Assembly (NCBI GenBank): GCA_048940645.1
Contig: JBHLOI010000011.1
Location: forward strand, 18,204 to 82,203
From: Promethearchaeota archaeon
GTDB lineage: Archaea; Asgardarchaeota; Lokiarchaeia; Sigyniarchaeales; SOKP01
Direction: 5' to 3'
DNA length: 64,000 nucleotides
Positions 10,034 to 49,705 of the stretch are shown here, piece by piece. Within the stretch, counting starts at the first letter, position 1, and each line of letters begins with the position of its first letter. Both the position numbers and the translations under genes were made by a program. A model generated the notes under the pieces. The model worked only from the letters and a program-made list of their open reading frames with translations, ran no database searches and had not been told where the DNA came from.

Positions 10034-10048
10034 TTTTTTCTTTAAATA
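10034..10048 (+). promoter_or_regulatory. T6C-TATA element
   Basis: TTTTTTCTTTAAATA in a divergent intergenic region, 53-62 nt before the 10094/10103 start. Confidence 0.7.
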
Positions 10049-10093
10049 TCCTCATAACTTCACATTATTTATCATAAAAAGTACAAATTTGAG

Positions 10094-11179
10094 TTGAAAA
10101 TTATGCAACTAGTAGAAGTTATAAGGGATATACAAACACGAATTCTAGAAAATCCAGATGAAATTATGAAATACATTCAAATTGGCATAAGTATCCCTAT
10201 ATTGCCAGAATTTTGGAAATATATGCGAAGTGATTTCGAAGAATACAATGCCAAATCGATCATTCTCGAAGAGGAAGTAGGTACAGAAACATTTGGAAAG
10301 ATGACCGATAAAGTAATTGGTCATACATTAGTCTATAATGACGGTGGGGATGTCTTATTTTTTGGATTTTTTAGGGTAATCGATCATGATCCGCGAAATA
10401 TCGAGGTTTTAGTAAATAGAATAATTGAGTATGCTCGTGAAAACGATTTCACTTCGATTCGAGGCCCCATTAATGTACCCACGGTCATTTTTGGATGGGG
10501 TTTTATGGTTGAAGGGAGTAGAAAAGATTTATTTATCGGCTCACCAGTAAATCCCCCAATTTATCAGAAAATGTTCATGGAAAAGGGGTTTACGATAAAA
10601 TTTCAAGAGGATAGATATTGGATGCCTGCTATGAAAATGGATCCATACCGTAATCCTGCTTTAAAAAAGAAAGGGGTAAATTTTGCAGAATATGAATTTT
10701 CCAATCCAGGGTTAGAAGGGATGATGCAAATCAAGGATGAGTATATCGAAATCCATGCAGACTATATGCCTCCTTCGGCAAAAATTACTCCCAAAGCATC
10801 AAAAAACTTTGATAATATTGTGGATTTCGTACATAGATATGGGACTAATTGGATGATGTGGATTGTGCGTCATAAAGCAACTGGGCAGCTTGCAGCCTGT
10901 GGTTACGTAATTCCAGATGTATTCCATAAAGACAGAAAAGGAGAACTTGACTCGATTAGCTTTCATGACTGGGTAGTCCATCCTAACCATCGTCGTAAAT
11001 ATCTCTCCATGCTAATGTACGGAGAAACTTCATTACGAGCAAAAGACCGAAAAACACCTCACTATATAAAACGGGGTTCATGGCCAGTGGGAGCTGACAA
11101 TATTGCCAATGCCAATGCTGCTAAAAAGATGGGCGGAAAAAAAGATAGAAGCCATGTAATATTACAATTGGAGTTATAA
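10094..11179 (+). CDS. GNAT-fold (YghO-like) N-acyltransferase
   Basis: FFGFF...RGPIN...GFMVEG...NPPIY...GF pattern; C-terminal VHPNHRRK and N..AN..AKKMGG acetyl-CoA-type motifs. Confidence 0.6.
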   Translation: MKIMQLVEVIRDIQTRILENPDEIMKYIQIGISIPILPEFWKYMRSDFEEYNAKSIILEEEVGTETFGKMTDKVIGHTLVYNDGGDVLFFGFFRVIDHDPRNIEVLVNRIIEYARENDFTSIRGPINVPTVIFGWGFMVEGSRKDLFIGSPVNPPIYQKMFMEKGFTIKFQEDRYWMPAMKMDPYRNPALKKKGVNFAEYEFSNPGLEGMMQIKDEYIEIHADYMPPSAKITPKASKNFDNIVDFVHRYGTNWMMWIVRHKATGQLAACGYVIPDVFHKDRKGELDSISFHDWVVHPNHRRKYLSMLMYGETSLRAKDRKTPHYIKRGSWPVGADNIANANAAKKMGGKKDRSHVILQLEL

Positions 11180-11227
11180 ATTAATTAGATTTTTTTTTAT
11201 TTTTATTTTATTTAAATTGTTATATAT

Positions 11228-11563
11228 TCATTCTTGATCAATTTTCTCTTTTAAACCATGATAAATAGTATTAATCCTTCCTCCTATTTGTTCTAAAAAT
11301 TCATTTCTTTCTTTTAGTTCTTTTAGCAACCTATCTGACGTTAAATTATGATGGGTATCATTTTCTAGCCTAACATACGAGGGGAAAAACTTTAATAGAT
11401 CCTCTTTCATTTTGATACGAGATTTTAGAATATATTCTCGAAGCTGCTTCTCGCTAATCTTTCCCGAAACTGCTTGATTAATAATGAGCTTTAATTTATA
11501 AAACTCCTCTTTTTTTAATAATACATCATCTAAAGCATCTTCTAATATGGTACTTATTTTCAT
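11228..11563 (-). CDS. Hypothetical protein, last gene of the 16836-11228 operon
   Basis: 111 aa ORF 7 nt downstream of the 1234 aa gene. Confidence 0.65.
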   Translation of the reverse strand: MKISTILEDALDDVLLKKEEFYKLKLIINQAVSGKISEKQLREYILKSRIKMKEDLLKFFPSYVRLENDTHHNLTSDRLLKELKERNEFLEQIGGRINTIYHGLKEKIDQE

Positions 11564-11570
11564 AGTATTA

Positions 11571-14500
11571 TCACCTATTTAAAAATTTTTTTAAGCTGAT
11601 ATACCAATCATACACCAAATTATACACTTCATTAGCTAAATGTTCCTGATTACCTGTTCTTAGCTCAATTTGCTCACACCTTTCGAATAAGCTTAATAAA
11701 TCATCAGCATAGAAAGGAAATCCTTGAATATCAGAAATTAGCTTGATAAACTCAACAACATTTTTTTTAGTAATTTCATTCTCAGGATGATAATAGTGAA
11801 GATAACACCTCTTAAAATAATCTGATAAAAACACTTTTAACATTTTAAGACTAGCAATAAATTGTTTATTTTCGATAAAATAGTTAATATTAAATAGATT
11901 TCGTAACATTTTTCCGTCAAAATTAAGCGTAAGTACGTTCTTAAGTCTTATTTGAGTTTCATGTGATAATTTAGGTGTTAAAAATCGGGGAACTCCAGAT
12001 GATTCCTTTTTAATTACATTAAATACAATATGACCCGGATTATTTGATTTCGCTTCATAATATTCCTGTATTGCTTTCTCATAAGCAGGACCAATAATTA
12101 GACAAGTCCTTGTAGATTGGCCACCTCCCGCAGCTCTGGGATGGTCTTCTACTAAATAATCATATCTTCGTAAAATTTCATAAATAGTATCTCGGATTAT
12201 CATAATTTGTTTTTTATTTTGAGAATAATTTTGAGAAATTTTGGGATGTAAATATTCCAAGAGCAATTTCTTTATTTTTTTTTCGTACAAGCCAGCAACA
12301 TTTTGTACAGCTTTTATTTGTTTAAAAAATCTAATTAATTCATTTCGATATTCGATGTATTCCCCTAAATCTCGTTCAAGCTTAGTTTTTTGAGCCAAGC
12401 TTAAAATCTTTTTTTCACTAAATTTCAAATCATAACCTAGGGTATCCATATGATCTACAATTTTATTATATTCCAATGGTTTCGCATTATTCACATCATC
12501 AATCAGGAGTATTACTGGAAATGACTGTTCCACGTCCGAACGTTTCATAAGTATTTGATTATGCTTTAAGTTTCGTAAGAAATGGATTTGATAATTCTCA
12601 TTCCTTGTGGAACTATAATATCCCGTCCCATGTAACTCATTTAAGTTTAACAGATTTGATAATGTGGCAATATCGCGTGAATCTGTGGTCCGAAAGGTCA
12701 CTAAATTGCTCAAAAATTTATATATATTAGGATGTAAATAGCGAATCTCATTTGCAGAGCAAATAATACCAAAGTTCTTTTCTTTTAAGGGATCAAAAAA
12801 CTTATCTATTAAACCATAATTTGCCACTTTATCTAAGTAGGCATTCTCAAAAACGATATCAACATGAGGGAGAAAAATAAATTTAGAGAAATATCGGGGT
12901 GAATTCTCACAGTAGCGGATTAATTTTGAAAGGACCAAAAACATAAGGTAACAGAGCGTTTTATAATCCTTTGAAATAGAAATATCTACAATAACCGTAT
13001 GATGAGTAGTGATGAATTCATGTACTTTCACTATATTCTCATCTGTAGTATGCAAAAACGTTAAATCTTCTTGAGAAATATCACTTAGAGTAGAGAGCAA
13101 TCCCTCAACAGTTGCATTTTTCTCATATTCTGGTTTGTGCTGAAGATCAATCTTTGCCAAATTTAAGTTTCCCCCATATTGACGAATACTATTTTTAAAG
13201 CTGTGCATAAAACGCTCATCTTTTCTAAAACTCATCGCATATGCCTCAAACATATACTCTAAATACTTGATATTATCATTTTCATAGGGAATTTCAGAAT
13301 CAAACGGATCTAGCGTAAAAGCCTTTCCTAATTTAAAATATAAGATATTCTGTTGAAACTTTGTATTTTCAAAGTAAGTTAGCAATCTTGACCATCTCCC
13401 GGTAAAATCAAAAATAAGGCAGGGGATTTCCTTTTTAATAAGTTCAGCAGCCATTTTCATATTAAGTAGTTCTCTATTAAAGTTTGTACCATTTGTAATC
13501 AATAAAGAATGAAGTTGTTCAAACAAAAATCCTGCTGGAACCTCTTCTCTCAATGTTTCTGTGTTTAAAGCGCGTCCAATTTCAATAAAATTGTCTAAAT
13601 GTAAGGGAGTATTAAACTCAGTTGCAATCTGGACATCTATTCCTTTCTTTAGTTCATTTGGGATGGTAATAATGCTTATAAGTGCAGTTCCTTGATACAC
13701 CACATGCCACAGGTGGGAGCCATTAGAATAAATATTATTGTTTTTTACCAGCTCGCATTGGAAACCAGATTCTAATAATTGTTTTTGAAGTTTGATCAAT
13801 TGAAATCTTTTAAAATTAGTTCGGAAGGTTTCCAGGAGTACAGTTCCCGCTTTATATAGCTGTTTATTAATGATGGATATAGATTTCGTGGAAACATGTT
13901 GGGTAGGTACACGAAATGAAGTTGAAAGTGAAAAAATTGATTCCCAAATACCACCACGTCTATCTAACCAATTATATCTATCCTCATCATTAAGTAACCG
14001 TCTTACGATGAAATTCCTTACTTTTTCACGAGTCTCCTTCGCATATTTCTTATCCACCTCAGCAAATGAAAGTGGACGGGAAATTGCTGTATAGGTAAAA
14101 GGTAGTTGATATCGGTTTACTCCTGAGAAAAATTTACTGAATGAACCAAATGGAGGCTTTAAAACCTTATTTACGGTGTACATTTTTATTCCGATTAATT
14201 CTTTGTTATCCATATGGGCAAAGAGAATATCAGGGATACGATTGGATAGAAAAAATCTTACATTTTGAAAGGGATCCACAACACTAATCTCTTGATAGTT
14301 AAAAAATTTTAAAGAGAATAGTTGAAAAAAGATGTTTTTCCACCAAATAATCAAGAGCACGGGGATGAAAATTATATTAAACATTATAATAAAAAGCATG
14401 GGAAAAGAAAGAAGTACGAAGTATGTATTGAAGATTACTAATAGTAGTGAGCTGAATATTGTTCTGAGTAGTGTAATTCTTTTACTAAAAGTGTTTAGAG

Positions 14501-15275
14501 TAGTTTTTTCAATAGAAACATCATTAAAGTCTTCTTGAAAAAGAGAAGATCTGATCGCGCCAATTATAGCATTACTTTTAAGAGATGTGACATGAAAATG
14601 ATGGTAATCGGAAGCAAATAAAGATTTAAGTTTTGCTCCGTAATGAAATAATTTTTCATTTAGTTGTCCAATTTTACGGGAATTTAGCGTCCCTTGTGTA
14701 GAGCTAAATACAACGATATAGATATAGGTCTTGAATGCTCCAGATCTTTTTTTGGTATGTACTACTTGATAGGTGAAGGGGACATACTCATTAATATCTG
14801 AAAATGCTTTTAAGAAATGCATTAGAGAGGGATGTACATTTTCAGCCATCACCCTAATAGAAAAGATTTTCATTCCAACTGTAAGAAGATCTTTATAATT
14901 TGTATAATACAATGTGCTTTGATCTTCCTTTATCTGCCAAAAAATGATATCCTTAAATGGATGGAACGTGGATTTCCCTCTCCATATAAAAAATGCTTCA
15001 TAAAAAACTAAGGAAAACCCTAACTCCAAGATAATTGTTAGACCTATTGTTAAATATAGGTTATTGCTCAAAAAATATGTCCCTATCATGAATAAAAAGC
15101 CAAAAATTAAGAGAAATATAGTCTTGCTTAAGGAATACTTTATGGAGATATCTCTCCGAGAAGGTTGTTTTTCCCAGATATATTGATATTGGAGTGATGA
15201 TTGAGAAGAATTCTTTTCTTTTTTCTTAGCAACTAATTTCTTTTCATGCAAATATTTTGTATAAAATTGGACCAT
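11571..15275 (-). CDS. Membrane-anchored VirB4/HerA(CedB)-like P-loop protein with degenerate Walker motifs
   Basis: Two TM-pair+domain repeats, then HSLLITNGTNFNRE (Walker A position), CLIFDFTGRW, FIFLPHVD (Walker B position), GIICSANEIRYLHPNI..LSNLVTFR, in HerA/VirB4 motif order. Confidence 0.65.
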   Translation of the reverse strand: MVQFYTKYLHEKKLVAKKKEKNSSQSSLQYQYIWEKQPSRRDISIKYSLSKTIFLLIFGFLFMIGTYFLSNNLYLTIGLTIILELGFSLVFYEAFFIWRGKSTFHPFKDIIFWQIKEDQSTLYYTNYKDLLTVGMKIFSIRVMAENVHPSLMHFLKAFSDINEYVPFTYQVVHTKKRSGAFKTYIYIVVFSSTQGTLNSRKIGQLNEKLFHYGAKLKSLFASDYHHFHVTSLKSNAIIGAIRSSLFQEDFNDVSIEKTTLNTFSKRITLLRTIFSSLLLVIFNTYFVLLSFPMLFIIMFNIIFIPVLLIIWWKNIFFQLFSLKFFNYQEISVVDPFQNVRFFLSNRIPDILFAHMDNKELIGIKMYTVNKVLKPPFGSFSKFFSGVNRYQLPFTYTAISRPLSFAEVDKKYAKETREKVRNFIVRRLLNDEDRYNWLDRRGGIWESIFSLSTSFRVPTQHVSTKSISIINKQLYKAGTVLLETFRTNFKRFQLIKLQKQLLESGFQCELVKNNNIYSNGSHLWHVVYQGTALISIITIPNELKKGIDVQIATEFNTPLHLDNFIEIGRALNTETLREEVPAGFLFEQLHSLLITNGTNFNRELLNMKMAAELIKKEIPCLIFDFTGRWSRLLTYFENTKFQQNILYFKLGKAFTLDPFDSEIPYENDNIKYLEYMFEAYAMSFRKDERFMHSFKNSIRQYGGNLNLAKIDLQHKPEYEKNATVEGLLSTLSDISQEDLTFLHTTDENIVKVHEFITTHHTVIVDISISKDYKTLCYLMFLVLSKLIRYCENSPRYFSKFIFLPHVDIVFENAYLDKVANYGLIDKFFDPLKEKNFGIICSANEIRYLHPNIYKFLSNLVTFRTTDSRDIATLSNLLNLNELHGTGYYSSTRNENYQIHFLRNLKHNQILMKRSDVEQSFPVILLIDDVNNAKPLEYNKIVDHMDTLGYDLKFSEKKILSLAQKTKLERDLGEYIEYRNELIRFFKQIKAVQNVAGLYEKKIKKLLLEYLHPKISQNYSQNKKQIMIIRDTIYEILRRYDYLVEDHPRAAGGGQSTRTCLIIGPAYEKAIQEYYEAKSNNPGHIVFNVIKKESSGVPRFLTPKLSHETQIRLKNVLTLNFDGKMLRNLFNINYFIENKQFIASLKMLKVFLSDYFKRCYLHYYHPENEITKKNVVEFIKLISDIQGFPFYADDLLSLFERCEQIELRTGNQEHLANEVYNLVYDWYISLKKFLNR

Positions 15276-15281
15276 AACTTA

Positions 15282-16869: not shown

Positions 16870-16884
16870 TATATAAAGAAAAAA
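16870..16884 (-). promoter_or_regulatory. T6C-TATA element
   Basis: Minus strand TTTTTTCTTTATATA, 41 nt before ATG 16836. Confidence 0.7.
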
Positions 16885-18621: not shown

Positions 18622-18636
18622 TATTTAAAGAAAAAA
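18622..18636 (-). promoter_or_regulatory. T6C-TATA element (leaderless spacing)
   Basis: Minus strand TTTTTTCTTTAAATA, 31 nt before ATG 18598. Confidence 0.75.
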
Positions 18637-20164: not shown

Positions 20165-20190
20165 TTTTTTCTTTATATTTAAAAGAAAAA
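20165..20190. promoter_or_regulatory. Back-to-back overlapping T5-6C-TATA elements (imperfect palindrome)
   Basis: TTTTTTCTTTATATTTAAAAGAAAAA between divergent genes 20131(-) and 20271(+). Confidence 0.6.
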
Positions 20191-20220
20191 TTAAGTTCTC
20201 TCTTCTTTTTCATTAAGATG

Positions 20221-20235
20221 TTTTTTCTTTATATA
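20221..20235 (+). promoter_or_regulatory. T6C-TATA element
   Basis: TTTTTTCTTTATATA, 43 nt before ATG 20271. Confidence 0.7.
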
Positions 20236-20270: not shown

Positions 20271-20576
20271 ATGGGTGTAGAACCGTTAAAAGAAAATGGC
20301 AACATGAAACCTATTCCAAGAAAGATTTTTAAGTGCCCATTTTGTGGATTTTTAATTGAACTTGAAGTGGATCGTACATTATTCACACGGTATGTGAGCG
20401 AAAGCCACTTTTTGTATCCCCACTTGCATATTCATGGCAATCCACTTCATGGAACCCTCTGTTATTTGGATCCTAACATGGCAATACGAAATATTGAAAT
20501 TATCAGAAGTATCGAGATATTCAGGAGTTCCGATACATTCCAACAACTACTAAATAAATGCTTAAATCAGTTATAA
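20271..20576 (+). CDS. Small metal-binding protein (CxxC plus HxHxHGxxxH)
   Basis: CPFC...HLHIHGNPLH; SD-like GAGGT upstream. Confidence 0.65.
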   Translation: MGVEPLKENGNMKPIPRKIFKCPFCGFLIELEVDRTLFTRYVSESHFLYPHLHIHGNPLHGTLCYLDPNMAIRNIEIIRSIEIFRSSDTFQQLLNKCLNQL

Positions 20577-36069: not shown

Positions 36070-36107
36070 TATTTAAAGCAAAACTGTGTTGTTTATTGAT
36101 ATATTAA

Positions 36108-37143: not shown

Positions 37144-37158
37144 TTTTTTCTTTATAAA
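37144..37158 (+). promoter_or_regulatory. T6C-TATA element upstream of radA paralog
   Basis: TTTTTTCTTTATAAA, 56 nt before ATG 37207. Confidence 0.7.
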
Positions 37159-39153: not shown

Positions 39154-39196
39154 CTCCTAGACCTCTATTCTAATATAGCATATGAAAAAAGAAAAA

Positions 39197-40213
39197 TTAT
39201 TTTTCTTTAAATTTAAAGCTGATATCACCTTTCCTGCGATAATGAAAGACAATTAACACTAAAACTCCAGTAATTAATCCCGCACCTAGGATTGTGTATA
39301 GCCCTAAATCAAGCGGTATAGAAAAATTATTTGCTATGGAGGATTGATTATCATCAGGTGACGGAGGATTACAAATCGGCCCGTTGTCCACAATAGCGTA
39401 GGCAACATTCATCCAGTCTACTTCACAATAAACCCTAATACCAATGGTGTAGGGTCCTCCTATTGCGGTACCAAATGAAAATATGTTTACACTTGCTATA
39501 GATGCTAGGGTGTCATTTTCATAAATTGCGAATGGAATAGCATTAGGATCAATAATGTTATATATTACGCCCCCTTTGCTACTTAGATTCATAGATATTG
39601 AGGATACTCTCCCAATATAAAATTTATAACTTCTATCTGTTCCAAAAAATACCTCGTGTGATATAAAAAAACCATCTGAAAAACAAGTTACCTCATAGAA
39701 AATAATATTTCCGAATTCTTGCTGAGTAATTTTATCAAACAGACAATTTACATCTTCTCTTAATATTTTTATTTTAATATTAAGATTTTCCTCAAGCGTT
39801 GCTCTAAACATGAATGTATAGTTTCCGGCAACGGCAGTCCCAAATGGAATTGAAAATTCGCCATCTATTTGGGAAATATAGGTATAAAATATTTGAAATT
39901 CCCGATTAAAGCTATCCCATAGTGTAATATTCATATAGCAACTATGGGGAGTTACCACACTTACAATAATAGTATGCATGTAGGTTCTTAATAGGTCGAA
40001 GCTTAAGGTGTATGTATCTTGTGTTTGGGTAAAGGTGAATACTTTGCAAATATATTCGTGATTGCTGGTGTGAATCCTATTGTGTGTTAAATTCCCCAAT
40101 GATTGGGAGGAATTAGCAAGCGATCCATTATCTCGATATATATTGGGTGAGGAAAGTATTAAAAATCCGCCAAGAATTAAAATATATATAATTTTTCGTT
40201 TTTTAATATCCAT
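39197..40213 (-). CDS. Surface protein with two beta-rich repeats and C-terminal TM anchor
   Basis: Signal anchor; repeats FGTAVAGNYTF and FGTAIGGPYTI; C-terminal TM plus basic tail. Confidence 0.7.
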   Translation of the reverse strand: MDIKKRKIIYILILGGFLILSSPNIYRDNGSLANSSQSLGNLTHNRIHTSNHEYICKVFTFTQTQDTYTLSFDLLRTYMHTIIVSVVTPHSCYMNITLWDSFNREFQIFYTYISQIDGEFSIPFGTAVAGNYTFMFRATLEENLNIKIKILREDVNCLFDKITQQEFGNIIFYEVTCFSDGFFISHEVFFGTDRSYKFYIGRVSSISMNLSSKGGVIYNIIDPNAIPFAIYENDTLASIASVNIFSFGTAIGGPYTIGIRVYCEVDWMNVAYAIVDNGPICNPPSPDDNQSSIANNFSIPLDLGLYTILGAGLITGVLVLIVFHYRRKGDISFKFKEK

Positions 40214-40566: not shown

Positions 40567-40581
40567 TATATAAAGAAAAAA
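40567..40581 (-). promoter_or_regulatory. T6C-TATA element
   Basis: Minus strand TTTTTTCTTTATATA, 54 nt before ATG 40520, divergent context. Confidence 0.7.
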
Positions 40582-40653
40582 TTAGAAATCATGGAGAGAC
40601 CCTCCCTTTATATAAAATACTATTTGTATTACTCTACGATTTTTCTAACCTCA

Positions 40654-40668
40654 TTTTTTCTTTAAATA
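40654..40668 (+). promoter_or_regulatory. T6C-TATA element (leaderless spacing)
   Basis: TTTTTTCTTTAAATA, exactly 29 nt before ATG 40690, divergent context. Confidence 0.8.
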
Positions 40669-40689: not shown

Positions 40690-40914
40690 ATGGTCTTTTT
40701 TGATTATTTTGATGGGTTCCAGACAGGAATTGAATTTTTAATCGCATTAGGATCAATTATTGGGTTATTAGGTCTAATCATGGGAATTATTTTTTTAATT
40801 TGGGGGGGATCTAGATTGCGATACAAAATGCTTGGAGTTGTACTTGTTTCAATTGTTCTTTTAGTAATCTGTGGATTCGATACAGGATTAAAATACTTCA
40901 CCATTTACCGATAA
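40690..40914 (+). CDS. 74 aa two-TM protein, VirB2/CedA1 pilin-like architecture
   Basis: Amphipathic N-helix, Gly-rich TM1, basic loop GGSRLRYK, TM2. The CDS is solid; pilin identity is inferred. Confidence 0.6.
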   Translation: MVFFDYFDGFQTGIEFLIALGSIIGLLGLIMGIIFLIWGGSRLRYKMLGVVLVSIVLLVICGFDTGLKYFTIYR

Positions 40915-41355: not shown

Positions 41356-41370
41356 TATTTAAAAGAAAAA
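41356..41370 (-). promoter_or_regulatory. T5C-TATA element
   Basis: Minus strand TTTTTCTTTTAAATA. Confidence 0.6.
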
Positions 41371-41449
41371 CAGCATCTCTCTTTTTTTGTTTAAATATAT
41401 AGAACAATGAAAAATATCAAAACAAAGTTTATTGATAAATTGAGGTTTT

Positions 41450-41715: not shown

Positions 41716-41729
41716 TTTTTCTTTAAATA
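41716..41729 (+). promoter_or_regulatory. T5C-TATA element (leaderless spacing)
   Basis: TTTTTCTTTAAATA, exactly 29 nt before ATG 41751. Confidence 0.75.
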
Positions 41730-41957: not shown

Positions 41958-41972
41958 TTTTTTCTTTTAATA
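41958..41972 (+). promoter_or_regulatory. T6C-TATA element (leaderless spacing)
   Basis: TTTTTTCTTTTAATA, exactly 29 nt before ATG 41994. Confidence 0.75.
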
Positions 41973-41993: not shown

Positions 41994-43094
41994 ATGGGAG
42001 TAAAATTACATAATCTTATTATCCGCAAAAAATTGGATTTTTCTGATTTAGCAGGAACCATTATTGCAATCGATGCTCCCAACATTATAATGAGTTTATT
42101 TAATTTTGTCCGTAAAAATTCAGATGGTAGTCCTGCTGGTTTAATTTTAGATCGAACCCAACGTCCAATTTCTCATTTATATGGTCTTTTATATCGAATT
42201 AACTTCTATTATAGTAAGAAGATTTTTCCTCTATTCTGCTTCGATGGAAAAGTATCTGAATTAAAGAAACTCATAACTAAAGACCAGTTAAACGATTATC
42301 TATTTACTCAGAAATGGTACCAATCTGCCTTGAGGTCTGGCAATAATGAATTAGCAAGAAAAATCGCATTAAGTAAAGAGTATTTATGGCAAAACATTAT
42401 TCAAGAATCAAAACAACTCCTTAATAATCTTGGAGTACCGTATTTCGATTCTCCGGCCTCAGCAGAGTCACAATGTGCCCAGTTAGTAAGAGATAAGATT
42501 GCTCATTATTCCAATTCCCAGGATTTTGATTCTTTAGTATTTGGGTGTCCCCACTTAGTTCAGAACATTTCAAAGTCATTACGAAGAAAAGTCCACGGAA
42601 AATGGACGTATCAGAAAATTATTCCCTATAAAATTAATTTAAAAGAGAATTTACACTCCTTAGGAATTGATCAGTTTCAGTTAGTTGATATGGTCATCTT
42701 GATGGGATGTGATTATTTTCCTGGTGTCAGAGGAATCGGTCCAAAAAAAGCCCTTAATTTGATAAAAAAATTCCATTCTTTAGAAAAGGTAATATTTCAA
42801 GAAAAAAAAAGATATAATTTCAAAGCGCTTACTTCAGATTTAATTATTAAAATTCGAAAACTATTTTTACTTCCAGATGTGTTATCTTCATATTCTGAGA
42901 TCACTTGGAACATACCAAATGTACCCCTGGTTAAATCCTTTTTATGTGAGCAGCATTTCTTAAATAAAGAGCGAGTGCAAAACAATCTCAAGAAATTCTT
43001 ACGGAATTTTGAGAAGTGTAGAGAATTTTTTGTCACTCAAAAAGATAAGCCTCGTATTATTCAAAAAACATTAAATCAATACTCCTTAATTTAA
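41994..43094 (+). CDS. fen: Flap endonuclease 1 family protein, divergent paralog
   Basis: MGV, IAIDA, SHLYGL, FDGK, AESQCA, SQDFDSLVFG, GCDY.PG..GIGPKKA; PIP-like QKTLNQY. Confidence 0.88.
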   Translation: MGVKLHNLIIRKKLDFSDLAGTIIAIDAPNIIMSLFNFVRKNSDGSPAGLILDRTQRPISHLYGLLYRINFYYSKKIFPLFCFDGKVSELKKLITKDQLNDYLFTQKWYQSALRSGNNELARKIALSKEYLWQNIIQESKQLLNNLGVPYFDSPASAESQCAQLVRDKIAHYSNSQDFDSLVFGCPHLVQNISKSLRRKVHGKWTYQKIIPYKINLKENLHSLGIDQFQLVDMVILMGCDYFPGVRGIGPKKALNLIKKFHSLEKVIFQEKKRYNFKALTSDLIIKIRKLFLLPDVLSSYSEITWNIPNVPLVKSFLCEQHFLNKERVQNNLKKFLRNFEKCREFFVTQKDKPRIIQKTLNQYSLI

Positions 43095-43888: not shown

Positions 43889-44293
43889 TTGAAGGATAAA
43901 ATTAAGCTTACATTGCCATTAGTTACTTTAAAAATATTAAATAGTCTTTGTATTCTGTTCAGTGCATTTATATTGATAAGTACTTTAAGAGCTTTGTATT
44001 TTCTCACTGCTGATCCTCCAGATTTACCCTGCCTTATGTGTGAGGGATGCCCCTGTCCACCTAGTGATTTTGTTATAGCCAGAAATTATTATCTTAATTT
44101 CTTGTTCCCAACGTTGATTTTCTCAAATATAATATTGATTGCTCTTTGTATCATTTTAATTTCAATTTTGAAATTTAAATATAGCTTCCTCAAATTAACT
44201 CTTTTTATAAAAAAGTATGGAAAAAGTGAGGATTTATTCAAAGCATATAAATCTACAATCCAATCTAATGATTTTAACCTTAAATATAGATGA
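43889..44293 (+). CDS. Two-TM protein with Cys/Pro-rich loop
   Basis: PPDLPCLMCEGCPCPP between TMs. Confidence 0.55.
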   Translation: MKDKIKLTLPLVTLKILNSLCILFSAFILISTLRALYFLTADPPDLPCLMCEGCPCPPSDFVIARNYYLNFLFPTLIFSNIILIALCIILISILKFKYSFLKLTLFIKKYGKSEDLFKAYKSTIQSNDFNLKYR

Positions 44294-44332: not shown

Positions 44333-45661
44333 TTACTTTTTCATATTTTTTAATTTTAATTTTCTCGATTTTAAAAAATTTTGAAATTCAAAATCACTTA
44401 TTTTATCTGCTTCGAGGGCTCCCGTACTTTCTAGATACTTTTTAAAATCTTTAATAAGAGAGATAACTTCTTCTTGTTTAAAATTTTCTTTAAAAATGAA
44501 ATTATTTCGCTCTAAAATAAATTCAGAATACCACCAATAAAATATGACAGTTATAAGTATAATTAGGAAATTGTTTACTAAACTAATCTGACTTTGACTA
44601 GCATAAGTTCCTGAGATTGAACCAGCTCCAATAATCATAATGATTTGCCCTTCAAAATATAAAATTGTGAATGCAAAAAGGAAAAATGATAAATTATTGG
44701 GAGTAAATATCTTAAATCTGAAAAGTTTACCTCCTAAACCCTTTAAGACCAAAATTGCTGTTAAAATCATTAAAAGAATGTCAATAACTACTCTGAAAAA
44801 ATCGAATCCATGGATTTCTGTTACTCTTCTAAACGACCAAATGAAACTAAACGATCTATACCATAAGTAAAGCCATATAAATATGTAAAATAATGAAGAA
44901 AAAACGTTTGGCGTTTCATTTTTAATGCTTTTAATAAATAAGTTAATTACTTTATAAGAGGTTATGATTATGATAATATACATTGCTATATTCCATCCAT
45001 TAAACCAATAAATTGGTTCTAATGAATCTCCTGGACTTTGAATTTCAAAATAATTTAATAATCCAAAATAAGTACTTAATTGGAACACAATTGGTAATAT
45101 TAATCCAATAGTTAAGAATACGTAACTGTATATTCTACTAATATTGGACTCTCTATTTCTAGTTATTAATATATCATTAGCTTTATTCGAAATGCTAACC
45201 ATAATTTTTCTAATAAAGAAAATCTGGATCAAATTCCACCCAAAATAAATAATAACACATGAATATGGTAGTATTATATCCCAACCTAAAAACTGAACTG
45301 GTATTTGTGAAGAGGAGCCAAAGAAGAAATAGATTAATATTAAAATTAAGCAAATTCCAAAAGTAATCATTAGGATTGTAAGCTTTTTTATGGTATGTTT
45401 TCTTTCTTTTGAGAATATTTGAGCCTCCATTTGAGGGATCATACTAATAAACATTAAGATTAAATAAGTAAGAGTAAAGGAAATGGTTACAATCAAGACA
45501 ATATTACCGATATCCTCTTTTGGATAAAGGCTAAGAACAGTAATTACAATTATAATTAAAAAAAATAAAATCGTATAAATAATATGACTATGTTCAAATA
45601 ATCTGTGAAATCTTGTTTTAATAGTTTCTTTATCCTTTATAGTATTAATATTTTCATTCAT
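44333..45661 (-). CDS. Polytopic membrane protein (about 10 TM)
   Basis: Hydrophobicity pattern; no family recognised. Confidence 0.7.
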   Translation of the reverse strand: MNENINTIKDKETIKTRFHRLFEHSHIIYTILFFLIIIVITVLSLYPKEDIGNIVLIVTISFTLTYLILMFISMIPQMEAQIFSKERKHTIKKLTILMITFGICLILILIYFFFGSSSQIPVQFLGWDIILPYSCVIIYFGWNLIQIFFIRKIMVSISNKANDILITRNRESNISRIYSYVFLTIGLILPIVFQLSTYFGLLNYFEIQSPGDSLEPIYWFNGWNIAMYIIIIITSYKVINLFIKSIKNETPNVFSSLFYIFIWLYLWYRSFSFIWSFRRVTEIHGFDFFRVVIDILLMILTAILVLKGLGGKLFRFKIFTPNNLSFFLFAFTILYFEGQIIMIIGAGSISGTYASQSQISLVNNFLIILITVIFYWWYSEFILERNNFIFKENFKQEEVISLIKDFKKYLESTGALEADKISDFEFQNFLKSRKLKLKNMKK

Positions 45662-45705: not shown

Positions 45706-45720
45706 TTTTTTCTTTAAAAA
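45706..45720 (+). promoter_or_regulatory. T6C-TATA element
   Basis: TTTTTTCTTTAAAAA, 55-61 nt before the RPA start, divergent context. Confidence 0.65.
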
Positions 45721-45767: not shown

Positions 45768-46694
45768 TTGATTATGAGTTCATACATGGAAGAGATATAT
45801 CAAAAACTTATTGAACATGGTTTTTCAAAAAAGGAATTAGAAAACGAAATTAATAAGAAAGCAAAGGAATATGGTGGATTTATGTCTAAGCAAGGTATCC
45901 TTTTTATCATTGCTAAAGAATATGGAATGAATATTAATTCTCCAGAAATAGAGACAGAGCTTTATCAGAAGGTTGAGGAGAATATAAACTATGATGAATT
46001 TACTATTCCTATTTCCAATCTCAAAGAAGGCATGGAAAATGTAGTGTTATTGGGTAAAATTTTAAAATATGTTCCTCCAAAAGAATTTCTACGTAAAGAT
46101 AATTCCATTGGGGCAATTTCCTCATGTATTATTGGTGATAATTCAGGGGATATAAAAGTTGTCATGTGGGATGAAAAAGCAATAGCAATGAATAATGATT
46201 CTTCTAAAGAGGGCGAATTAGTAAGAGTAATTAGTGATTATATCAAAATAAATCGAAATGGAAACCTAGAAGTTCATGTAGGAAAAAAAGGCAAGATCAT
46301 TTTAGCACCTAGAGATATAAATTCAAAGATTAAAAAAAAATTAGCAGAAATACCATATAAAAGGAAGGAATTCAATAATCATTTTTCAATTAGTGATCTA
46401 ATCAATAAATATTCGTTTATTCAAAAATTAAAAGGACAGGTTCACATTAAAAAATTCAAGGAAATTACCAAAAAGGATGGTGAAAAAATGTTTTTATTAA
46501 AGCTAATTTTGAGTGATGATACTGGATCTGTTTGTATGAATATTTGGGGTATGAACGCTATAGAAACTTTGAAACTTATTGAAGAAGGAGATCATATTAT
46601 TGTAAAAAATCTTTCTGTAAAATTCAATTCTTATACTAGTGAAAAGGAGCTTTCCTTTACTAAAAAATCTACCTTAGAAGTAGTTTCTTTTTAA
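45768..46694 (+). CDS. rpa: Replication protein A / SSB with two OB folds
   Basis: N-terminal helical domain (KAKEYGGFMS...IIAKEYG); OB folds ISNLKEG..NV.LLGKI...GDNSGDIKVVMW and LSDDTGSVCMNIWG. Confidence 0.85.
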   Translation: MIMSSYMEEIYQKLIEHGFSKKELENEINKKAKEYGGFMSKQGILFIIAKEYGMNINSPEIETELYQKVEENINYDEFTIPISNLKEGMENVVLLGKILKYVPPKEFLRKDNSIGAISSCIIGDNSGDIKVVMWDEKAIAMNNDSSKEGELVRVISDYIKINRNGNLEVHVGKKGKIILAPRDINSKIKKKLAEIPYKRKEFNNHFSISDLINKYSFIQKLKGQVHIKKFKEITKKDGEKMFLLKLILSDDTGSVCMNIWGMNAIETLKLIEEGDHIIVKNLSVKFNSYTSEKELSFTKKSTLEVVSF

Positions 46695-46767: not shown

Positions 46768-47088
46768 TTAATTTATACTTTCTTTCTTCTTTAATAATCG
46801 GTCCTTATATTGATTTGCCTTTGGATGAGTGGGTGTTATTTCTAAGGCTTTTTCATAATATTTTAAAGCTTCCTGATAATTTCCCATCTTCTCATAGGTT
46901 TTACCCAACATTACCCAACCAGTATCGTATTTAGGGTTTATAGTTAGTACTTTCATCCAATTTTCAATTGTGTTATCATAATTTTTAGAAAAAGAATATT
47001 TAACAGCTTGATGAAAGTATTTATTATAATCCTCTACCTTTATCTCCTCTTCTTCTTCATTTTTTTCTTCTTTTTTAGGAATATTCAT
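46768..47088 (-). CDS. Small TPR protein
   Basis: INPKYDTGWVMLGKTYEKMGNYQEALKYYEKALEITP. Confidence 0.8.
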   Translation of the reverse strand: MNIPKKEEKNEEEEEIKVEDYNKYFHQAVKYSFSKNYDNTIENWMKVLTINPKYDTGWVMLGKTYEKMGNYQEALKYYEKALEITPTHPKANQYKDRLLKKKESIN

Positions 47089-47183: not shown

Positions 47184-47198
47184 TTTTTTCTTTAAATA
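47184..47198 (+). promoter_or_regulatory. T6C-TATA element
   Basis: TTTTTTCTTTAAATA, 51 nt before ATG 47242, inside the over-extended 47110 ORF call. Confidence 0.7.
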
Positions 47199-47241: not shown

Positions 47242-47775
47242 ATGTCATTTTATGTACCAAAAGTATTATATGAAAATGAAATTGCTGAAGTGCTAGATGA
47301 AATTCGATATAGCTATGGAAAGTTAACGAGAAAGGGATTTATTTACGGTCTAATTGCTATCGATCAAGATGCAAAAATTATTGCAATCGATTCACGATTT
47401 GATCGTAAATTGAATTATTGGGATTTGAGCTCTATTGGAGCAGCATTATATGGAGTTGCTCGTCAAGCTCAAGATTTCTTTGATACTCAAGCTTTAATTA
47501 GAGCCACATTGATTTTTAAAGATTTACAATTATACGTTAAATCGGTCGGTTATGTGGATCTTCCACAAAAGGGAAAGAGAGAGATCTTAGTTATCTTATT
47601 GGTTAACAATGAAGTAAATATTGGTGTTCTTATTTTACAAATGACCAAATTCGCAGAAAAAATTCGCAATGCCATTAAAAGAAACAATGAAGTAATGACT
47701 AAATTAGAAATGAATGAAGCAGAGCTTAAGAAATATCTTAAAAATCTAAAACAGAAGGTATTTGGATCTACATAA
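47242..47775 (+). CDS. Roadblock/LC7 (MglB-like) domain protein (start revised to MSFYVP)
   Basis: LIAIDQDAKIIA...LSSIGAALYGVARQA...ILVIL...VNIGVL Roadblock pattern; directly upstream of an MglA-like GTPase. Confidence 0.75.
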   Translation: MSFYVPKVLYENEIAEVLDEIRYSYGKLTRKGFIYGLIAIDQDAKIIAIDSRFDRKLNYWDLSSIGAALYGVARQAQDFFDTQALIRATLIFKDLQLYVKSVGYVDLPQKGKREILVILLVNNEVNIGVLILQMTKFAEKIRNAIKRNNEVMTKLEMNEAELKKYLKNLKQKVFGST

Positions 47776-48478
47776 GACATTTATGGAGGAGGATATCATA
47801 TTGTCAGTAGGTTCAAATGATGTAGAAGATATTAAGAAGAGTGAAATAGAAATGAGCAAGGAAACTACTCCAAAGGCTCTTAAGGAAATTTTACAATTTA
47901 AAATTGTATACTGGGGTCCGGGTGAATCTGGAAAAACAACCAATTATTTTCGATTACGTGAAAAGTTTAATGGAATAATATTAAATAAAGGAGTCTCAAT
48001 TGAAACTACGGATGGAAGAACTCTATGGCAAGATTCTATTAGAATTTCTTTCTTTCTAAATCTTGGAGATGTAAAATTCAACATAATTGCTCAGATAGTA
48101 ACATGTACCGGTCAAGAACGCTTTCTCCAAACCAGAGAATATGTACTTGATGGAGCCGACGGAGTGGTTTTTGTTGGAGATTCTAAATATCAAAAAATGG
48201 AACAAAATAAACGTAGCTTTCGGGAATTAGTAAGCTTTACCAAGAAGACTAAAATTCCTTATGTAATACAACTAAATAAGAGAGATATAGAGGATGCCAT
48301 AGCAATTGAAGAGTTTAAAAAGCAACTAGGTTTACCATCATCTGATTTTTATAAAGATGGAACAGCAGTGGTGTATCCAGTAATTGCATTAAGTGGAGAA
48401 AACGTAAAAGAATGCTTTGAAGATTTGATTATTCAGGTTATCTTCAATTATTTTAAGAATAAACTCAATCTAATTTAA
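47762..48478 (+). CDS. mglA: MglA-family small GTPase (true start may be ATG 47783 or 47852)
   Basis: KIVYWGPGESGKTTN, T.DGRTLWQD, TCTGQ, VLDGADGVVFVGDS, QLNKRD. Confidence 0.85.
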   Translation: MDLHKTFMEEDIILSVGSNDVEDIKKSEIEMSKETTPKALKEILQFKIVYWGPGESGKTTNYFRLREKFNGIILNKGVSIETTDGRTLWQDSIRISFFLNLGDVKFNIIAQIVTCTGQERFLQTREYVLDGADGVVFVGDSKYQKMEQNKRSFRELVSFTKKTKIPYVIQLNKRDIEDAIAIEEFKKQLGLPSSDFYKDGTAVVYPVIALSGENVKECFEDLIIQVIFNYFKNKLNLI

Positions 48479-48504
48479 GTTTTAATTGAACCATTATTTT
48501 TTAG

Positions 48505-49683
48505 GTGGATCCTTTGGATACGGGTTATGATTTTATACAACCAGAATTTTTAAACATTCTGTTCTTTCAACAAAAAAGCCTAGTTATAGCTCCCTATGTA
48601 GATTTGAAACATCTTCATTCTCTTGAAATTTTCACAGTCGGTTATAACGTAGTTGATTTAGATTCCACAGCACTACATAATATCAGTGAGATCGTTGAAC
48701 TAGAAAATAATAATTCTTATTCTCAAACTCCATGCTTCTTCTTTATAACTAATATTAACAGCAATCAACTTCATGAAATAATAGAATTAGATAATATCCA
48801 TTGCGTTATTAATGCATGTGAGAAAATTGATTCCACCATTAATAATGGACGTTTTGTTTTTTATAATAAAAAGAATGGATCTTTTTTAAATTATGATCCA
48901 ACTAAAATTAATTTAGAATTTGAAAAACAGCTAATTAATAATTCTAAAAATAAATCTATTTTGCAGGATAAAATTTTGCGAATAAAAAGTATTGCTACCA
49001 CTATTTTCACTGAATTGAATGAAGAATTAAACATAAATAGCCGTAAAATTTCTCAGATCCTCTCTGAATATGATCCTAAATATTGGGATAAAATCCTTGA
49101 TTTTACACGACGCTATTATAAAATTGAGATTCCTAAAGCTGATATTAAGTTCTCTTTCAACAAAAAATCAAAACATTCAAATAAAAAATCGTTAATTGAT
49201 TTCTCAGATGAGTATCATACTATTGTATCTAGCAATAAAAAACTTGGTCGTGAATTTATTCAACTACTTCATGATTACCGCAGCAGAAGAGTAAATCCTT
49301 CAAATTTAGATTTGGAACAACTATATAATCCTCAAAAACTCTATGAATATTTACGAAATAATCATTGGAAAAATGGAATTGATCGGGAATTTTTAACTGA
49401 ATGGCAAAGAATGAACAATACAAAATATACATTAGATAAGGATGATCTCTCTGATTTTTATAGAATATTTAACATTCTTAAAGTTCCTGAGGATATATTA
49501 ATCAATTTCTCAACAGAAATAATGAATTATGATGAGCCTTTTGCCAGTAACAAAGAAGTAATATTTTCAGAACAAAATAATAATAAAGACTCGCAATCTA
49601 ATTCAAATCCTTCAATTAAAAACTTCCCACAATTCAAAAAATGGGTATTAAAAAAATTAGATGAAATTGAAAAATTGCTTTAA
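48505..49683 (+). CDS. Hypothetical protein, probably co-transcribed with mglBA
   Basis: 392 aa ORF 26 nt after mglA; no motif recognised. Confidence 0.7.
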   Translation: MDPLDTGYDFIQPEFLNILFFQQKSLVIAPYVDLKHLHSLEIFTVGYNVVDLDSTALHNISEIVELENNNSYSQTPCFFFITNINSNQLHEIIELDNIHCVINACEKIDSTINNGRFVFYNKKNGSFLNYDPTKINLEFEKQLINNSKNKSILQDKILRIKSIATTIFTELNEELNINSRKISQILSEYDPKYWDKILDFTRRYYKIEIPKADIKFSFNKKSKHSNKKSLIDFSDEYHTIVSSNKKLGREFIQLLHDYRSRRVNPSNLDLEQLYNPQKLYEYLRNNHWKNGIDREFLTEWQRMNNTKYTLDKDDLSDFYRIFNILKVPEDILINFSTEIMNYDEPFASNKEVIFSEQNNNKDSQSNSNPSIKNFPQFKKWVLKKLDEIEKLL

Positions 49684-49689
49684 TTACAA

Positions 49690-49705
49690 TTTTTTCCTTT
49701 AAATA
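49690..49705 (+). promoter_or_regulatory. T6CC-TATA element (leaderless spacing)
   Basis: TTTTTTCCTTTAAATA, exactly 29 nt before ATG 49727. Confidence 0.75.

Follow-up and report, generated by a model that had tools for sequence, protein, structure and literature searches.

The window, a 64-kb stretch of DNA from a Promethearchaeota archaeon, carries a 43-kb gene island between argB and argF (Table 1). In G010 and G018, an equivalent block also lies between argB and argF, and the two genes are separated by 130-160 bp in G008:C26 and G016:C22 and by ~1 kb in G015:C27. We searched the block for a tRNA gene, an att-like repeat, and an integrase, and none of these was found. The AF2 model of the 1234-aa membrane protein shows a pLDDT of 82.7, and Foldseek matches it to HerA (4d2i, E 2.6e-9) and VirB4 (4ag5_A, TMt 0.65). 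The Walker A motif (GxxxxGK[ST]) is absent from 48 of 48 homologues, and we read the protein, from its predicted structure, as a putative HerA/VirB4-fold pseudo-ATPase. The Atlas lead for this protein is to DUF87/HerA clusters. We also read the island as carrying spare recombination genes (RadA, FEN1, a Hel308-like helicase, and an RPA-like protein); other RadA genes of this genome lie on contigs C2 and C40, and a second FEN1 gene lies on contig C37.

Table 1. Features of the island and its flanks. Distances (nt) run from the first T after the C of the element to the start codon.
Feature	Position	Strand	Gene or unit served; remarks
argB	8965-9870	-	block flank
Block between argB and argF	9871-52849		43 kb; regulon core ~10035-50113
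Element TTTTTCTTTAAATA	10035-10048	+	361-aa gene (start 10094 or 10103); G018 and G010 orthologues also with element
HerA/VirB4-fold membrane protein, 1234 aa	11571-15275	-	HerA/VirB4/TrwB-type fold in C-terminal 715 aa
Element	16870-16883	-	four-gene membrane operon 16836-11228, including HerA/VirB4-fold protein; 41 nt; kept in G008 (three copies), G012, G015, G017
Element	18622-18635	-	568-aa membrane protein with helix-hairpin-helix domain (start 18598); 31 nt
Inverted T-run-C pair around one AT-rich core	20166-20190		plus copy 20166-20179; minus copy 20177-20190, 53 nt before B12/radical-SAM gene (start 20131)
Element	20222-20235	+	101-aa gene and Hel308-like helicase (20271-23116); 43 nt
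Variant TTTTCCTTTTTATT	24238-24251	+	small gene (start 24281); 37 nt; orthologues with TTTTTCCTTTTTAA
Element	24650-24663	+	86-aa gene (start 24707); 51 nt
Variant TTTTTATTTATATA, A for C	25174-25187	-	49-53-aa ORF
Element	25226-25239	+	conserved 407-aa gene (start 25289); 57 nt
Element TTTTTCTTTTTATA	29816-29829	-	operon 29793-26547: 194-aa gene, DEAD-box helicase, DUF1922 gene; 30 nt, putatively leaderless; spacing kept in G008:C20, G008:C49, G018, G010
Element	32314-32327	-	779-aa protein, prenyltransferase-like toroid domain (start 32268); 53 nt
Divergent TFB/TFIIB-fold protein, 421 aa	32362-33627	-	candidate reader of element
TFB-like gene promoter	33653-33685	-	purine-rich GGATAAGA, TATA box TTTAAAAA, conserved box GGCCACTCCCCATCTTC (candidate operator)
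Element TTTTCCTTTATATA	34212-34225	+	259/112/235-aa operon including AAA protein; 29 nt, putatively leaderless; 29-30 nt in G018 and G010
Element	36698-36711	+	126-aa gene (start 36733); 29 nt, putatively leaderless; 29-30 nt in five other islands
Element	37145-37158	+	RadA paralogue with extra C-terminal HhH domain (37232-38461)
Element	40567-40580	-	105/338-aa operon (start 40520); 54 nt
Element	40655-40668	+	74-aa gene 40690-40914; 29 nt, putatively leaderless
Variant TTTTTCTTTTAAAT	41357-41370	-	membrane protein gene (start 41343 or 41301)
Variant TTTTTGTTTAAATA	41384-41397	+	49-aa ORF (start 41450)
Element	41716-41729	+	31-aa ORF (start 41751); 29 nt
Element TTTTTCTTTTAATA	41959-41972	+	FEN1/XPG paralogue (41994-43094); 29 nt, putatively leaderless; 29 nt in G008:C12 and G008:C20 despite unrelated spacer sequence
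Element TTTTCCTTTATAAA	43099-43112	+	198-aa gene (start 43167); 62 nt
Element	45707-45720	+	RPA-like OB-fold protein (45768-46694)
Element	47185-47198	+	operon: 177-aa gene (start 47242), Arf-like GTPase, 392-aa gene; 51 nt
Element TTTTCCTTTAAATA	49692-49705	+	128-aa gene (start 49727); 29 nt, putatively leaderless
argF	52850-53782	-	block flank

The element consists of five to seven T's with a terminal C (sometimes CC) and passes directly into a TATA box of 8 bp; single islands contain a mixture of C, CC, A, and G junctions. The copies listed in a preliminary description of this DNA are all present, each within 1-2 nt of the position reported. That description proposed a comparison with shuffled DNA, in which the excess is clear: the window contains 14 exact copies of TTTTTCTTTAWAWA, all inside 10035-47198, against 0.22 expected from dinucleotide-preserving shuffles (largest 2), and 34 copies with at most one mismatch against 4.0 expected. 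Genome-wide (3.83 Mb), 14 of the 31 exact copies lie in the island block. The enrichment also holds once AT content and T-runs are controlled for. Exact intergenic matches number 14 in 6.1 kb in the island and 10 in 661 kb in the remaining genome, with equal base composition, a density ~150-fold higher (Poisson P ~4e-26), and TTTAWAWA follows TTTTTC at 14 of 44 sites in the island, compared to 10 of 2606 sites elsewhere. These results confirm that the T-run-C elements exist and are much too frequent to be due to chance.

Of the 25 conserved transcription units in the island, 24 have the element or a variant with one changed base upstream, and every intergenic copy is oriented toward a start codon, as had been claimed, including those in intervals between divergent genes. 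Seven lineage-specific inserted genes show no upstream match to the element, and the inserted gene at 36108-36572 has a one-mismatch match ahead of it at 36663-36676. Chance copies in coding regions had been anticipated, and the few one-mismatch matches found there look like chance; the reported partial match upstream of argF is also present. A near-match at 39200-39213 lies in a palindrome (39185-39212) with convergent genes on either side, and it looks like a terminator rather than a promoter.

Remeasured from the first T that follows the C, the start codon lies exactly 29 nt away in the genes starting at 34247, 36733, 40690, 41751, 41994, and 49727, at 30 nt in the gene starting at 29793, and at 31 nt in the one starting at 18598; these values agree with those first reported. 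The remaining distances are indeed larger, but the range given for them (41-63 nt) was too narrow, and the measured range is 37 to 81 nt. A start codon 29 nt past the first T places the TATA box at -29 to -22, and this geometry fits an archaeal start site at or adjoining the ATG. An A is found at +29 in 67% of 121 orthologous promoters, while the start codon is found at 29-30 in only 32 of the 121. The proposed leaderless geometry is supported by this A and by the TATA position. Transcription would most likely start ~29 nt past the first T of the TATA box, so roughly a third of the transcripts would be leaderless, and the others would have leaders of ~5-50 nt.

The element and its 29-30 nt spacing are kept before orthologous genes in 11 related islands from three genera, where the flanking sequence has diverged. 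Among the 121 orthologous promoters from 12 islands, in which positions -5 to +2 are fixed by the search pattern, T accounts for 97-100% at -6 to -3 and is followed by C at -1, and the flanking positions are near background. Strong Sulfolobus BREs have A at -3 and A/G at -6 before the TATA box (PMC5817253), whereas T occupies these positions in 100% and 97% of the island-type promoters, respectively. Elsewhere in this genome, GAAAAA- and GTAAAA-type words are favoured in upstream regions in the sense orientation, and TTTTTC is the complement of the GAAAAA-type word. The purine-rich elements reported before the TATA boxes of flank genes are all present, at ~4898 (CGAAAA), 2531 (GGGTAAAA), and 8860 (GAGTAAAG, minus strand). 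The orientation toward start codons, the coverage of conserved units, and the spacing kept in 11 islands support, at the level of sequence, the earlier proposal of a core-promoter class whose BRE position is taken by a pyrimidine tract.

Among the conserved transcription units of the island, the TFB-like gene alone lacks the element. TFIIB, TFB, and Brf chains make up the entire top 40 of the Foldseek matches to its product (best E 6.7e-7), with a TMt of 0.70 to the Pyrococcus woesei TFB core 1d3u_B, and hhalign aligns it to the canonical TFBs of this genome over 251 columns (probability 98.1%, E 9e-14). Pfam shows a weak Zn ribbon alone (E 1.3e-3) and no match to PF00382. The AF2 model is moderate, with a pLDDT of 69 overall and ~77-93 (for the most part 80-93) across both cyclin repeats. 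The protein retains the Zn ribbon and the two cyclin folds. Its B-reader is also changed, and it may therefore fail to act as a standard initiation factor. Conservation is highest in the DNA-reading helix, which is rewritten to RMSTIHKQVER compared to GVTEVTLRNRYKEL in canonical TFBs, and whose residues M279, S280, T281, Q285, and V286 are invariant across 54 homologues. Upstream of the gene, the purine-rich/TATA/box layout is found in 13 of the 13 copies inspected and the T-run-C element in none of them, and the conserved box occurs only once in the genome.

The TFB-like protein is encoded by 53 of 68 genomes sampled from one family, compared to 0 of 232 genomes from other families. Exact motifs cluster around all three TFB-like copies of G008 and likewise in G013, G018, and G010, and five genomes with no detected copy (two of them single-contig) show the motif at control level and unclustered; these counts come from related genomes rather than independent samples, and the co-occurrence is also expected from simple linkage in one inherited island. 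In four genomes where the TFB-like gene was missed, two other island genes were detected all the same. Genus g12 has mostly T-run-A-TTTAAATA as its element and KMSTINYQVKN in place of RMSTIHKQVER as the reading helix, a co-variation of helix and junction base that is based on one lineage.

We consider it probable (about 60%) that the island has a private TFB/promoter pair, in which a TFB paralogue reads the T-run-C in a sigma-factor-like manner and controls a self-contained regulon. The T-run-C occupies precisely the 6-7 bp in which TFB usually recognises an A-rich BRE, with the strands swapped, and the nine ordinary TFBs should therefore bind such promoters poorly. The island TFB paralogue, which we infer to be the reader, would bind the block together with TBP and recruit RNA polymerase. 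Because its own gene has an ordinary purine-rich promoter and a conserved box lying between the TATA box and the presumed start, it would stand at the top of the hierarchy: a signal would turn on the TFB gene, which would turn on ~24 island promoters and a few outside. The genes under this control would include those for the spare recombination and repair proteins and for the membrane module with the HerA/VirB4-fold pseudo-ATPase. A class private to one island, with its own TFB-like factor, goes beyond the preliminary description.

Compared to the canonical archaeal promoter (P. woesei TFBc-TBP-DNA, 1D3U and 1AIS), the island promoters share an 8-bp TATA box ~26 nt before the presumed start, a conserved 6-7 bp block directly upstream of it, where the TFB C-terminal helix-turn-helix binds, and a TFB-fold protein available as reader. 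However, the block is T-rich and closed by a C, where the canonical one is A-rich, and the candidate reader differs from canonical TFBs, which carry VTEVTLRNRYKEL in the reading helix, and is not recognised by the Pfam TFIIB model. Paralogous general factors dedicated to a subset of genes are found in Sulfolobus acidocaldarius TFB2 (cell-division wave; bioRxiv 10.64898/2026.09.06.749720), Sulfolobales TFB3 (UV response; PMC6101591), and the multiple TFBs of haloarchaea. The likeness extends to a regulated TFB gene atop the hierarchy and, for TFB3, to a regulon of DNA exchange and repair. However, TFB2 and TFB1 promoters have similar BREs and different spacing, whereas the island element is radically different; TFB3 lacks the DNA-binding core, whereas the island paralogue keeps both cyclin folds; and here the regulon is physically clustered in one island. 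By analogy, the island TFB probably reads the T-run promoter much like a bacterial alternative sigma factor. ECF-type factors are likewise initiation-factor paralogues with changed DNA specificity, act at promoters that the housekeeping factor should ignore, and are encoded next to their regulon, but their protein family and promoter architecture are unrelated to those of the island.

It is highly improbable that the T-runs are mainly oligo-T terminators or insulators ahead of ordinary AT-rich promoters, with no special class involved. T-runs do terminate archaeal RNA polymerase, some copies lie beyond the 3' end of a preceding gene, and the near-copy in the palindrome lies between convergent genes. 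However, as the preliminary description had argued, terminators do not simply account for the pattern: copies occur in the divergent intervals 20166-20235, 25174-25239, and 40567-40668, where there is nothing to terminate, the C is invariant, as is its direct contact with the TATA box, and the rest of the genome is equally AT-rich yet lacks the arrangement. A site for a separate activator, encoded by the island or the host, that recruits ordinary TFB to weak-BRE promoters (precedents are Ptr2 and PF1088) is a better alternative but still unlikely; the TFB-like protein would then do something else. Help from upstream factors at weak-BRE promoters is established (PMC5817253, PMC6061795), and many small conserved island proteins of unknown fold could bind DNA. 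The block also resembles ATTTTC, with A at -8 in 54% of promoters and TTTC at its end. A comparable word, non-palindromic, rich in T, and likewise closed by TTTC, is the A(N)TTTC hexanucleotide found in UV-inducible promoters of Sulfolobus (PMC5817253), at DNA-transfer and repair genes with weak BREs. That hexanucleotide is bound by Orc1-2 (PMC6061795), and no Orc1-type regulator was found in the island. Moreover, the Sulfolobus word occupies -44 to -39 and has a separate BRE downstream of it, whereas the island block (~-36 to -30 from the presumed start) abuts the TATA box and replaces the BRE, leaving little room for both an extra factor and the TFB helix. The TFB-like gene is the sole exception to the element and is most conserved in its DNA-reading helix; all other conserved island genes are preceded by the element, which excludes them as the first switch.

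Reading of the element by the island TFB is compatible with a further proposal, which concerns the nature of the island: that the block is an integrated or formerly mobile conjugative (ICE-like) element with the promoter and TFB homologue as its own expression system. We regard this as possible, though doubtful. The block separates argB from argF, which are neighbours in three other species of the genus, its RadA and FEN1 are extra paralogues, and the TFB-like copy number varies (three in the 10-contig G229, of which two share a contig, and four or five in G192). TFIIB homologues lie next to type IV secretion genes in all thaumarchaeal ICEs and also occur next to archaeal type IV secretion-like loci (PMC6563490). 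These loci and the Ced/Ted DNA-import systems (PMC9905601) share with the island a TFB homologue linked to a membrane module with a VirB4/HerA-fold protein and small membrane proteins, and a location that varies among relatives; a private promoter class is not mentioned in the available portions of those papers. Compared to them, the island lacks an integrase and a VirD4-type coupling protein, and its VirB4-like protein lacks Walker A in all 48 homologues. Searches of the block gave no integrase, relaxase, coupling ATPase, tRNA target, or flanking repeat, and the island shows no PHROG matches. Moreover, the island is inherited across the whole family, with the TFB-like gene in most of its sampled genomes, and its proteins are 35-77% identical between related islands, as expected under long vertical inheritance.

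The element that marks the island consists of a T-run and a C, standing in the BRE position and fused to the TATA box TTTAWAWA. The window contains 14 copies of its exact form, TTTTTCTTTAWAWA, where shuffles predict 0.22, and all of these copies fall inside the block between argB and argF; with one mismatch allowed, there are 34 matches against 4.0 expected. Ordinary genes flank the block, namely those of a Ras-family GTPase, ArgD, a penicillin amidase and ArgB to one side, and argF with oxidoreductase genes to the other. Proteins of the window have homologues in MAGs named as Promethearchaeota (Loki-type Asgard). The whole assembly (3.83 Mb, 126 contigs, 29.8% G+C) contains 31 exact copies, of which 14 are in the block and 3 on a 15.7-kb contig (C12), while the remainder are scattered. 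The enrichment, for which the preliminary description proposed a test against shuffled intergenic DNA and promoters outside the block, is borne out: intergenic DNA matched for base composition holds 2.3 copies per kb inside the block and 0.015 per kb outside it (Poisson P ~4e-26), and TTTTTC is followed by the TATA word at 14 of 44 block sites and at 10 of 2606 sites elsewhere. Chance in AT-rich DNA is ruled out by the shuffles, by a Markov simulation of the island's intergenic DNA and by the low count in 661 kb of intergenic DNA outside the island. A genome-wide promoter type is also ruled out, with TTTTTC forming the six bases before TTTAWAWA at 14/97 sites inside the block and at 17/7830 outside.

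Coordinates of the features discussed (window positions unless a contig is named)
Feature	Position	Strand	Remark
Exact copies of the element in the window	10035-47198		all inside this span
1234-aa membrane protein	11571-15275
Possible bidirectional promoter	20165-20192
TFB-like protein	32362-33627	-	421 aa
Promoter of the TFB-like gene	33653-33685	-	carries the conserved box (candidate operator)
Direct repeat, two copies	36070-36083; 36663-36676	+	14 bp, identical
Lineage-only gene with a one-mismatch match	36108-36572		match at 36663-36676
Terminator-like palindrome	39185-39212
FEN1 paralogue, start codon	41994
Lineage-only genes without the element	23137-24114; 38560-39153; 43889-44293; 44333-45661; 46768-47088; 50488-50958; 51165-52715
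Second, partial cluster	C12 2043-8032		locus L001
Element and 745-aa protein	C117 335-2608		locus L002
Exact motifs in a longer repeat	C7:36649; C83:21014; C119:2196
Island of genus g12	G170, C5:190001-250000		loci L070-L072

The geometry agrees with that of an archaeal core promoter, in which the TATA box lies ~26 nt before the transcription start and faces the gene. As had been described, the elements are aimed at start codons, TTTAWAWA pointing at one in all intergenic copies, and the reported spacings are exact: 29 nt to the ATG of the genes at 34247, 36733, 40690, 41751, 41994 and 49727, 30 nt for 29793 and 31 nt for 18598. The view that the elements are not merely terminators likewise stands, because several copies are located between divergent genes. 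One near-match to the motif that is no promoter is accounted for by a terminator-like palindrome, AAAGAAAAA-TTA-TTTTTCTTT, between convergent genes. Between one pair of divergent genes, the sequence TTTTTTC-TTTATATTTAAAA-GAAAAAT has a single AT-rich core with inverted T-run-C blocks on both sides, and could be a bidirectional promoter with one common TATA box.

We compiled a matrix of 121 orthologous promoters, numbered from the first T of the TATA box, in which positions -5 to +2 are set by the search pattern. It shows A at -8 (54%), T at -7 (72%) and at -6 (97%), T at -5 to -3 and C at -1 (each 100%, fixed by the pattern), and T or C at -2; positions further upstream are at background level. 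Downstream, +10 to +12 are pyrimidine-rich, +13 is a purine in 82% and +29 is A in 67%. A shared transcription start near +29 with a T-A initiator would be the simplest reading of the matrix, with the start codon at 29-30 nt in only 32 of the 121 promoters; in these 32, and at 8 genes in the window, the TATA box is placed at ~-29 to -22 from the ATG. The FEN1 paralogue begins MGVKL, in keeping with known FEN1 N-termini, so its start codon looks right and a leaderless mRNA is predicted for it.

The promoters outside the island look different. Purine-rich blocks before the TATA box, noted earlier at flank genes, are found at argD, the Ras GTPase gene and the amidase gene, and the most strand-biased 8-mers in 2459 upstream regions of the genome are AGTGAAAA, TAGAAAAA, GGTAAAAA and GGAAAAAA, as would be expected for an A-rich BRE. 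These purine-rich words surfaced only in the strand-asymmetric 8-mer analysis; derivation of ordinary promoters via TTTAWAWA, via the position relative to ATG or from 17 tRNA upstream regions gave a signal made up almost only of an SD-like G-rich patch. Strong Sulfolobus BREs have A at -3 and A or G at -6 (PMC5817253), whereas the island promoters have T at both positions, so that no purine-rich BRE adjoins their TATA box. Read on the opposite strand, TTTTTC is GAAAAA, so that the element resembles a BRE flipped in place.

The element is retained upstream of orthologous genes across 11 related islands (three in G008, one each in G010, G018, G012, G005, G015 and G017, and a full and a partial one in G229, a genome of another genus in which the gene order is partly shuffled), despite a divergence that leaves the island proteins 35-77% identical to those of the window. 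The element or a one-base variant precedes 24 of the 25 transcription units conserved in related islands. The genomes compared are kin, and counts across them are therefore not independent. At the FEN1 gene, the element and the spacer to the ATG are TTTTCTTTTAATA and tatagtatttctatttacatt in the window, TTTCCTTTTTATA and gaaccgaattacctaaactac in one G008 island (C12), and TTTTCTTTTTATA and atctgtaatgacctaaattgt in another (C20); the ATG stands at 29 nt in all three, and the spacers are unrelated. No element was found before 7 genes inserted into the block in this lineage only. An eighth such gene is preceded by a one-mismatch match, TTTTGCTTTAAATA. This ORF is bracketed by an identical direct repeat, TATTTAAAGCAAAA, and resembles a small insertion that has duplicated its target.

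Archaeal and eukaryotic transcription initiate with TBP and a TFIIB-family factor, and the island encodes a divergent protein of this fold, which is the candidate reader of the element. In Pfam it gives only the TFIIB Zn ribbon (Zn_Ribbon_TF, E 1.3e-3, below the cut-off) and no match to the PF00382 cyclin repeat, and a sequence search against solved structures gave no match. At least 374 homologues are 45-90% identical. C25, C28, C42 and C45 are invariant in 54 homologues and align to the ribbon of canonical TFBs, which identifies a Zn ribbon despite the weak Pfam score. The AlphaFold model built with the 54 homologues has a pLDDT of 69 overall and ~77-93, mostly 80-93, over residues 100-320. 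The best 40 Foldseek matches of this model in the PDB are all TFIIB, TFB or Brf chains (best E 6.7e-7), and the P. woesei TFB core on BRE-TATA DNA (1d3u_B) aligns with TMt 0.70 and rmsd 4.3 over 208 columns. Against 5 of the genome's 9 ordinary TFBs, hhalign gives 98.1% probability (E 9e-14, 251 columns) from the Zn ribbon through the last helix-turn-helix; both methods thus recover two cyclin-fold repeats. The BRE-reading helix and the B-reader differ from the canonical ones: the ordinary reading helix GVTEVTLRNRYKEL aligns to IRMSTIHKQVER, RMSTIHKQVER standing in place of VTEVT-R-RYKEL, and H-RPYN is found where the canonical B-reader has PEWRAF. M279, S280, T281, Q285 and V286 are invariant in the 54 homologues. 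All 9 ordinary TFBs (on C43, C117, C116, C86, C87, C57, C88, C42 and C36) have two TFIIB repeats and the VTEVT-R-RYKEL-type helix, and the genome encodes one TBP (C22) and one more TBP-domain protein (C83).

The TFB-like gene is the sole conserved island gene that never carries the element. In 13 of 13 copies inspected, a purine-rich stretch in its promoter precedes a TATA box (GATTTAAAAA or similar), which is followed by a conserved box, CACTCCCCATCTTC / GGCCACTCCCCATCTTC here and ACTGGTGATCTT in another sub-lineage. This box is unique in the genome. It lies downstream of the TATA box and ahead of the presumed start site, at a usual binding position of archaeal repressors, and would be a candidate operator for whatever turns the regulon on. 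An element-free, purine-rich promoter with such a box fits a two-step switch.

Our tentative interpretation, to which we give a probability of roughly 0.4, is an orthogonal initiation system in one Asgard family. A TFB paralogue with a rewritten helix would read a strand-inverted BRE (T-run-C, the complement of GAAAAA), and an island for membrane DNA handling and recombination would be insulated from the 9 housekeeping TFBs and fire only when the factor is made; helix and element would co-evolve between genera, MSTIHKQ with T-run-C and MSTINYQ with T-run-A. Island promoters in genus g12 are mostly T-run-A-TTTAAATA (9 with A, 3 with C and 1 with G) and the reading helix there is KMSTINYQVKN; in genus g14 the helix is KMSTIQSQVKK and the elements are C-type. 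The co-variation of helix and junction base is a single contrast and would serve as a lead only. The g12 genome also encodes a second, short TFB-like paralogue (232 aa) without a Zn ribbon, itself behind a T-run-A-type element.

To our knowledge, TFIIB-family paralogues have until now been seen to specialise only with similar promoter elements. If true, the proposed system would give archaea their first example of an initiation factor whose promoter code is truly its own, and a paralogue reading such an inverted code would illustrate how orthogonal specificities arise among TFIIB-family factors, the step behind the separate eukaryotic TFIIB, Brf and Rrn7 systems, here in Asgard archaea. Related logic is known elsewhere, and no paper in the collection searched describes the T-run-C promoter or the island. 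Genes for pili, DNA import and repair in Sulfolobales are controlled by the TFB paralogue TFB3 together with an A(N)TTTC word upstream (PMC5817253, PMC6101591); the logic is similar, but the island TFB is more complete. The A(N)TTTC/Orc1-2 hexamer lies at -44 to -39, upstream of a separate BRE (PMC5817253), whereas the island block runs up to -1 of the TATA box, at ~-36 to -30 relative to the presumed start, and is therefore not placed like that element. TFIIB homologues are also carried by archaeal conjugative elements and type IV secretion-like loci (PMC6563490), again with similar logic, but the island is without mobility genes.

The element would mark a co-regulated set of ~35 mostly unknown genes. 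They include spare copies of recombination and repair genes, namely a RadA paralogue with an extra HhH domain (other RadA genes are on C2 and C40) and a FEN1 paralogue (another is on C37), together with a Hel308-like helicase, a DEAD-box helicase with a DUF1922 partner and an RPA-like OB-fold protein. Also recognisable are an AAA protein, an Arf-like GTPase operon, a B12/radical-SAM enzyme and an HhH-domain membrane protein; ~15 island proteins have no family assigned, and scans of ~20 with Pfam (E up to 1) and PHROGs yielded no usable match. The C-terminal 715 aa of the 1234-aa membrane protein (pLDDT 82.7) have a HerA/VirB4/TrwB-type fold (HerA 4d2i, E 2.6e-9; VirB4 4ag5, TMt 0.65). A Walker A motif is missing in 48 of 48 sequences, the protein and its 47 homologues, with LLITNGTNFNRE at the expected place; the domain is thus a conserved pseudo-ATPase rather than a decayed gene. 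Taken together, the products of the island may serve a programme of DNA uptake, or of DNA exchange and recombination.

In the course of the family's evolution the island has changed place and been duplicated. G008, G016 and G015 have argB next to argF, whereas 43 kb lie between the two genes in the window, in G010 and in G018; the argB-argF spacers of relatives are too diverged for alignment. TFB-like copies number 1 to 5 per genome, with two on one contig in G229. Such variable location and copy number among relatives, including an empty site in three species, would be expected of an integrative-conjugative element, which would also carry active VirB4 and VirD4 ATPases; here the fold is present without Walker A, and no second HerA/VirB4-type ATPase was found in the island. 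Pfam scans of block ORFs of at least 80 aa found no integrase or recombinase family, and neither a tRNA gene nor flanking repeats were found at the island. Viral hallmark genes, as a provirus would carry, were not found either, with no PHROG family for 10 island proteins (E up to 0.01). The island looks long resident rather than recently acquired.

Gene and motif occur together. Among 301 sampled genomes of the phylum, the TFB-like protein (E up to 1e-20) is found in 53 of the 68 that belong to the window's family (8 genera) and in none of the 232 from 29 other families. Some genomes without a detected copy keep other island genes at contig ends, and in these the absence may reflect an assembly gap. 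All three copies in G008 lie inside clusters of 7-11 exact motifs, and the single copies of G013, G018 and G010 have motifs nearby. The motif is unclustered and at control frequency in 5 genomes where no copy was detected, of which two are single contigs.

Exact copies are also found outside the island. On C12, distant paralogues of the island genes at 34247, 40690 and 40936 stand behind 3 exact elements, and C117 has an exact element at a distance of 30 nt upstream of the gene for a 745-aa treble-clef Zn-finger protein; the regulon therefore extends past the island. The exact motifs on C7, C83 and C119 lie upstream of 842-, 443- and 599-aa ORFs, respectively, the first of which has no Pfam family. 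All three are within a common longer repeat (TTTTTCTTTATAAA-yCTCTGGCATCTTyTCC...TTTTAAGAA), which could be a repeated element.
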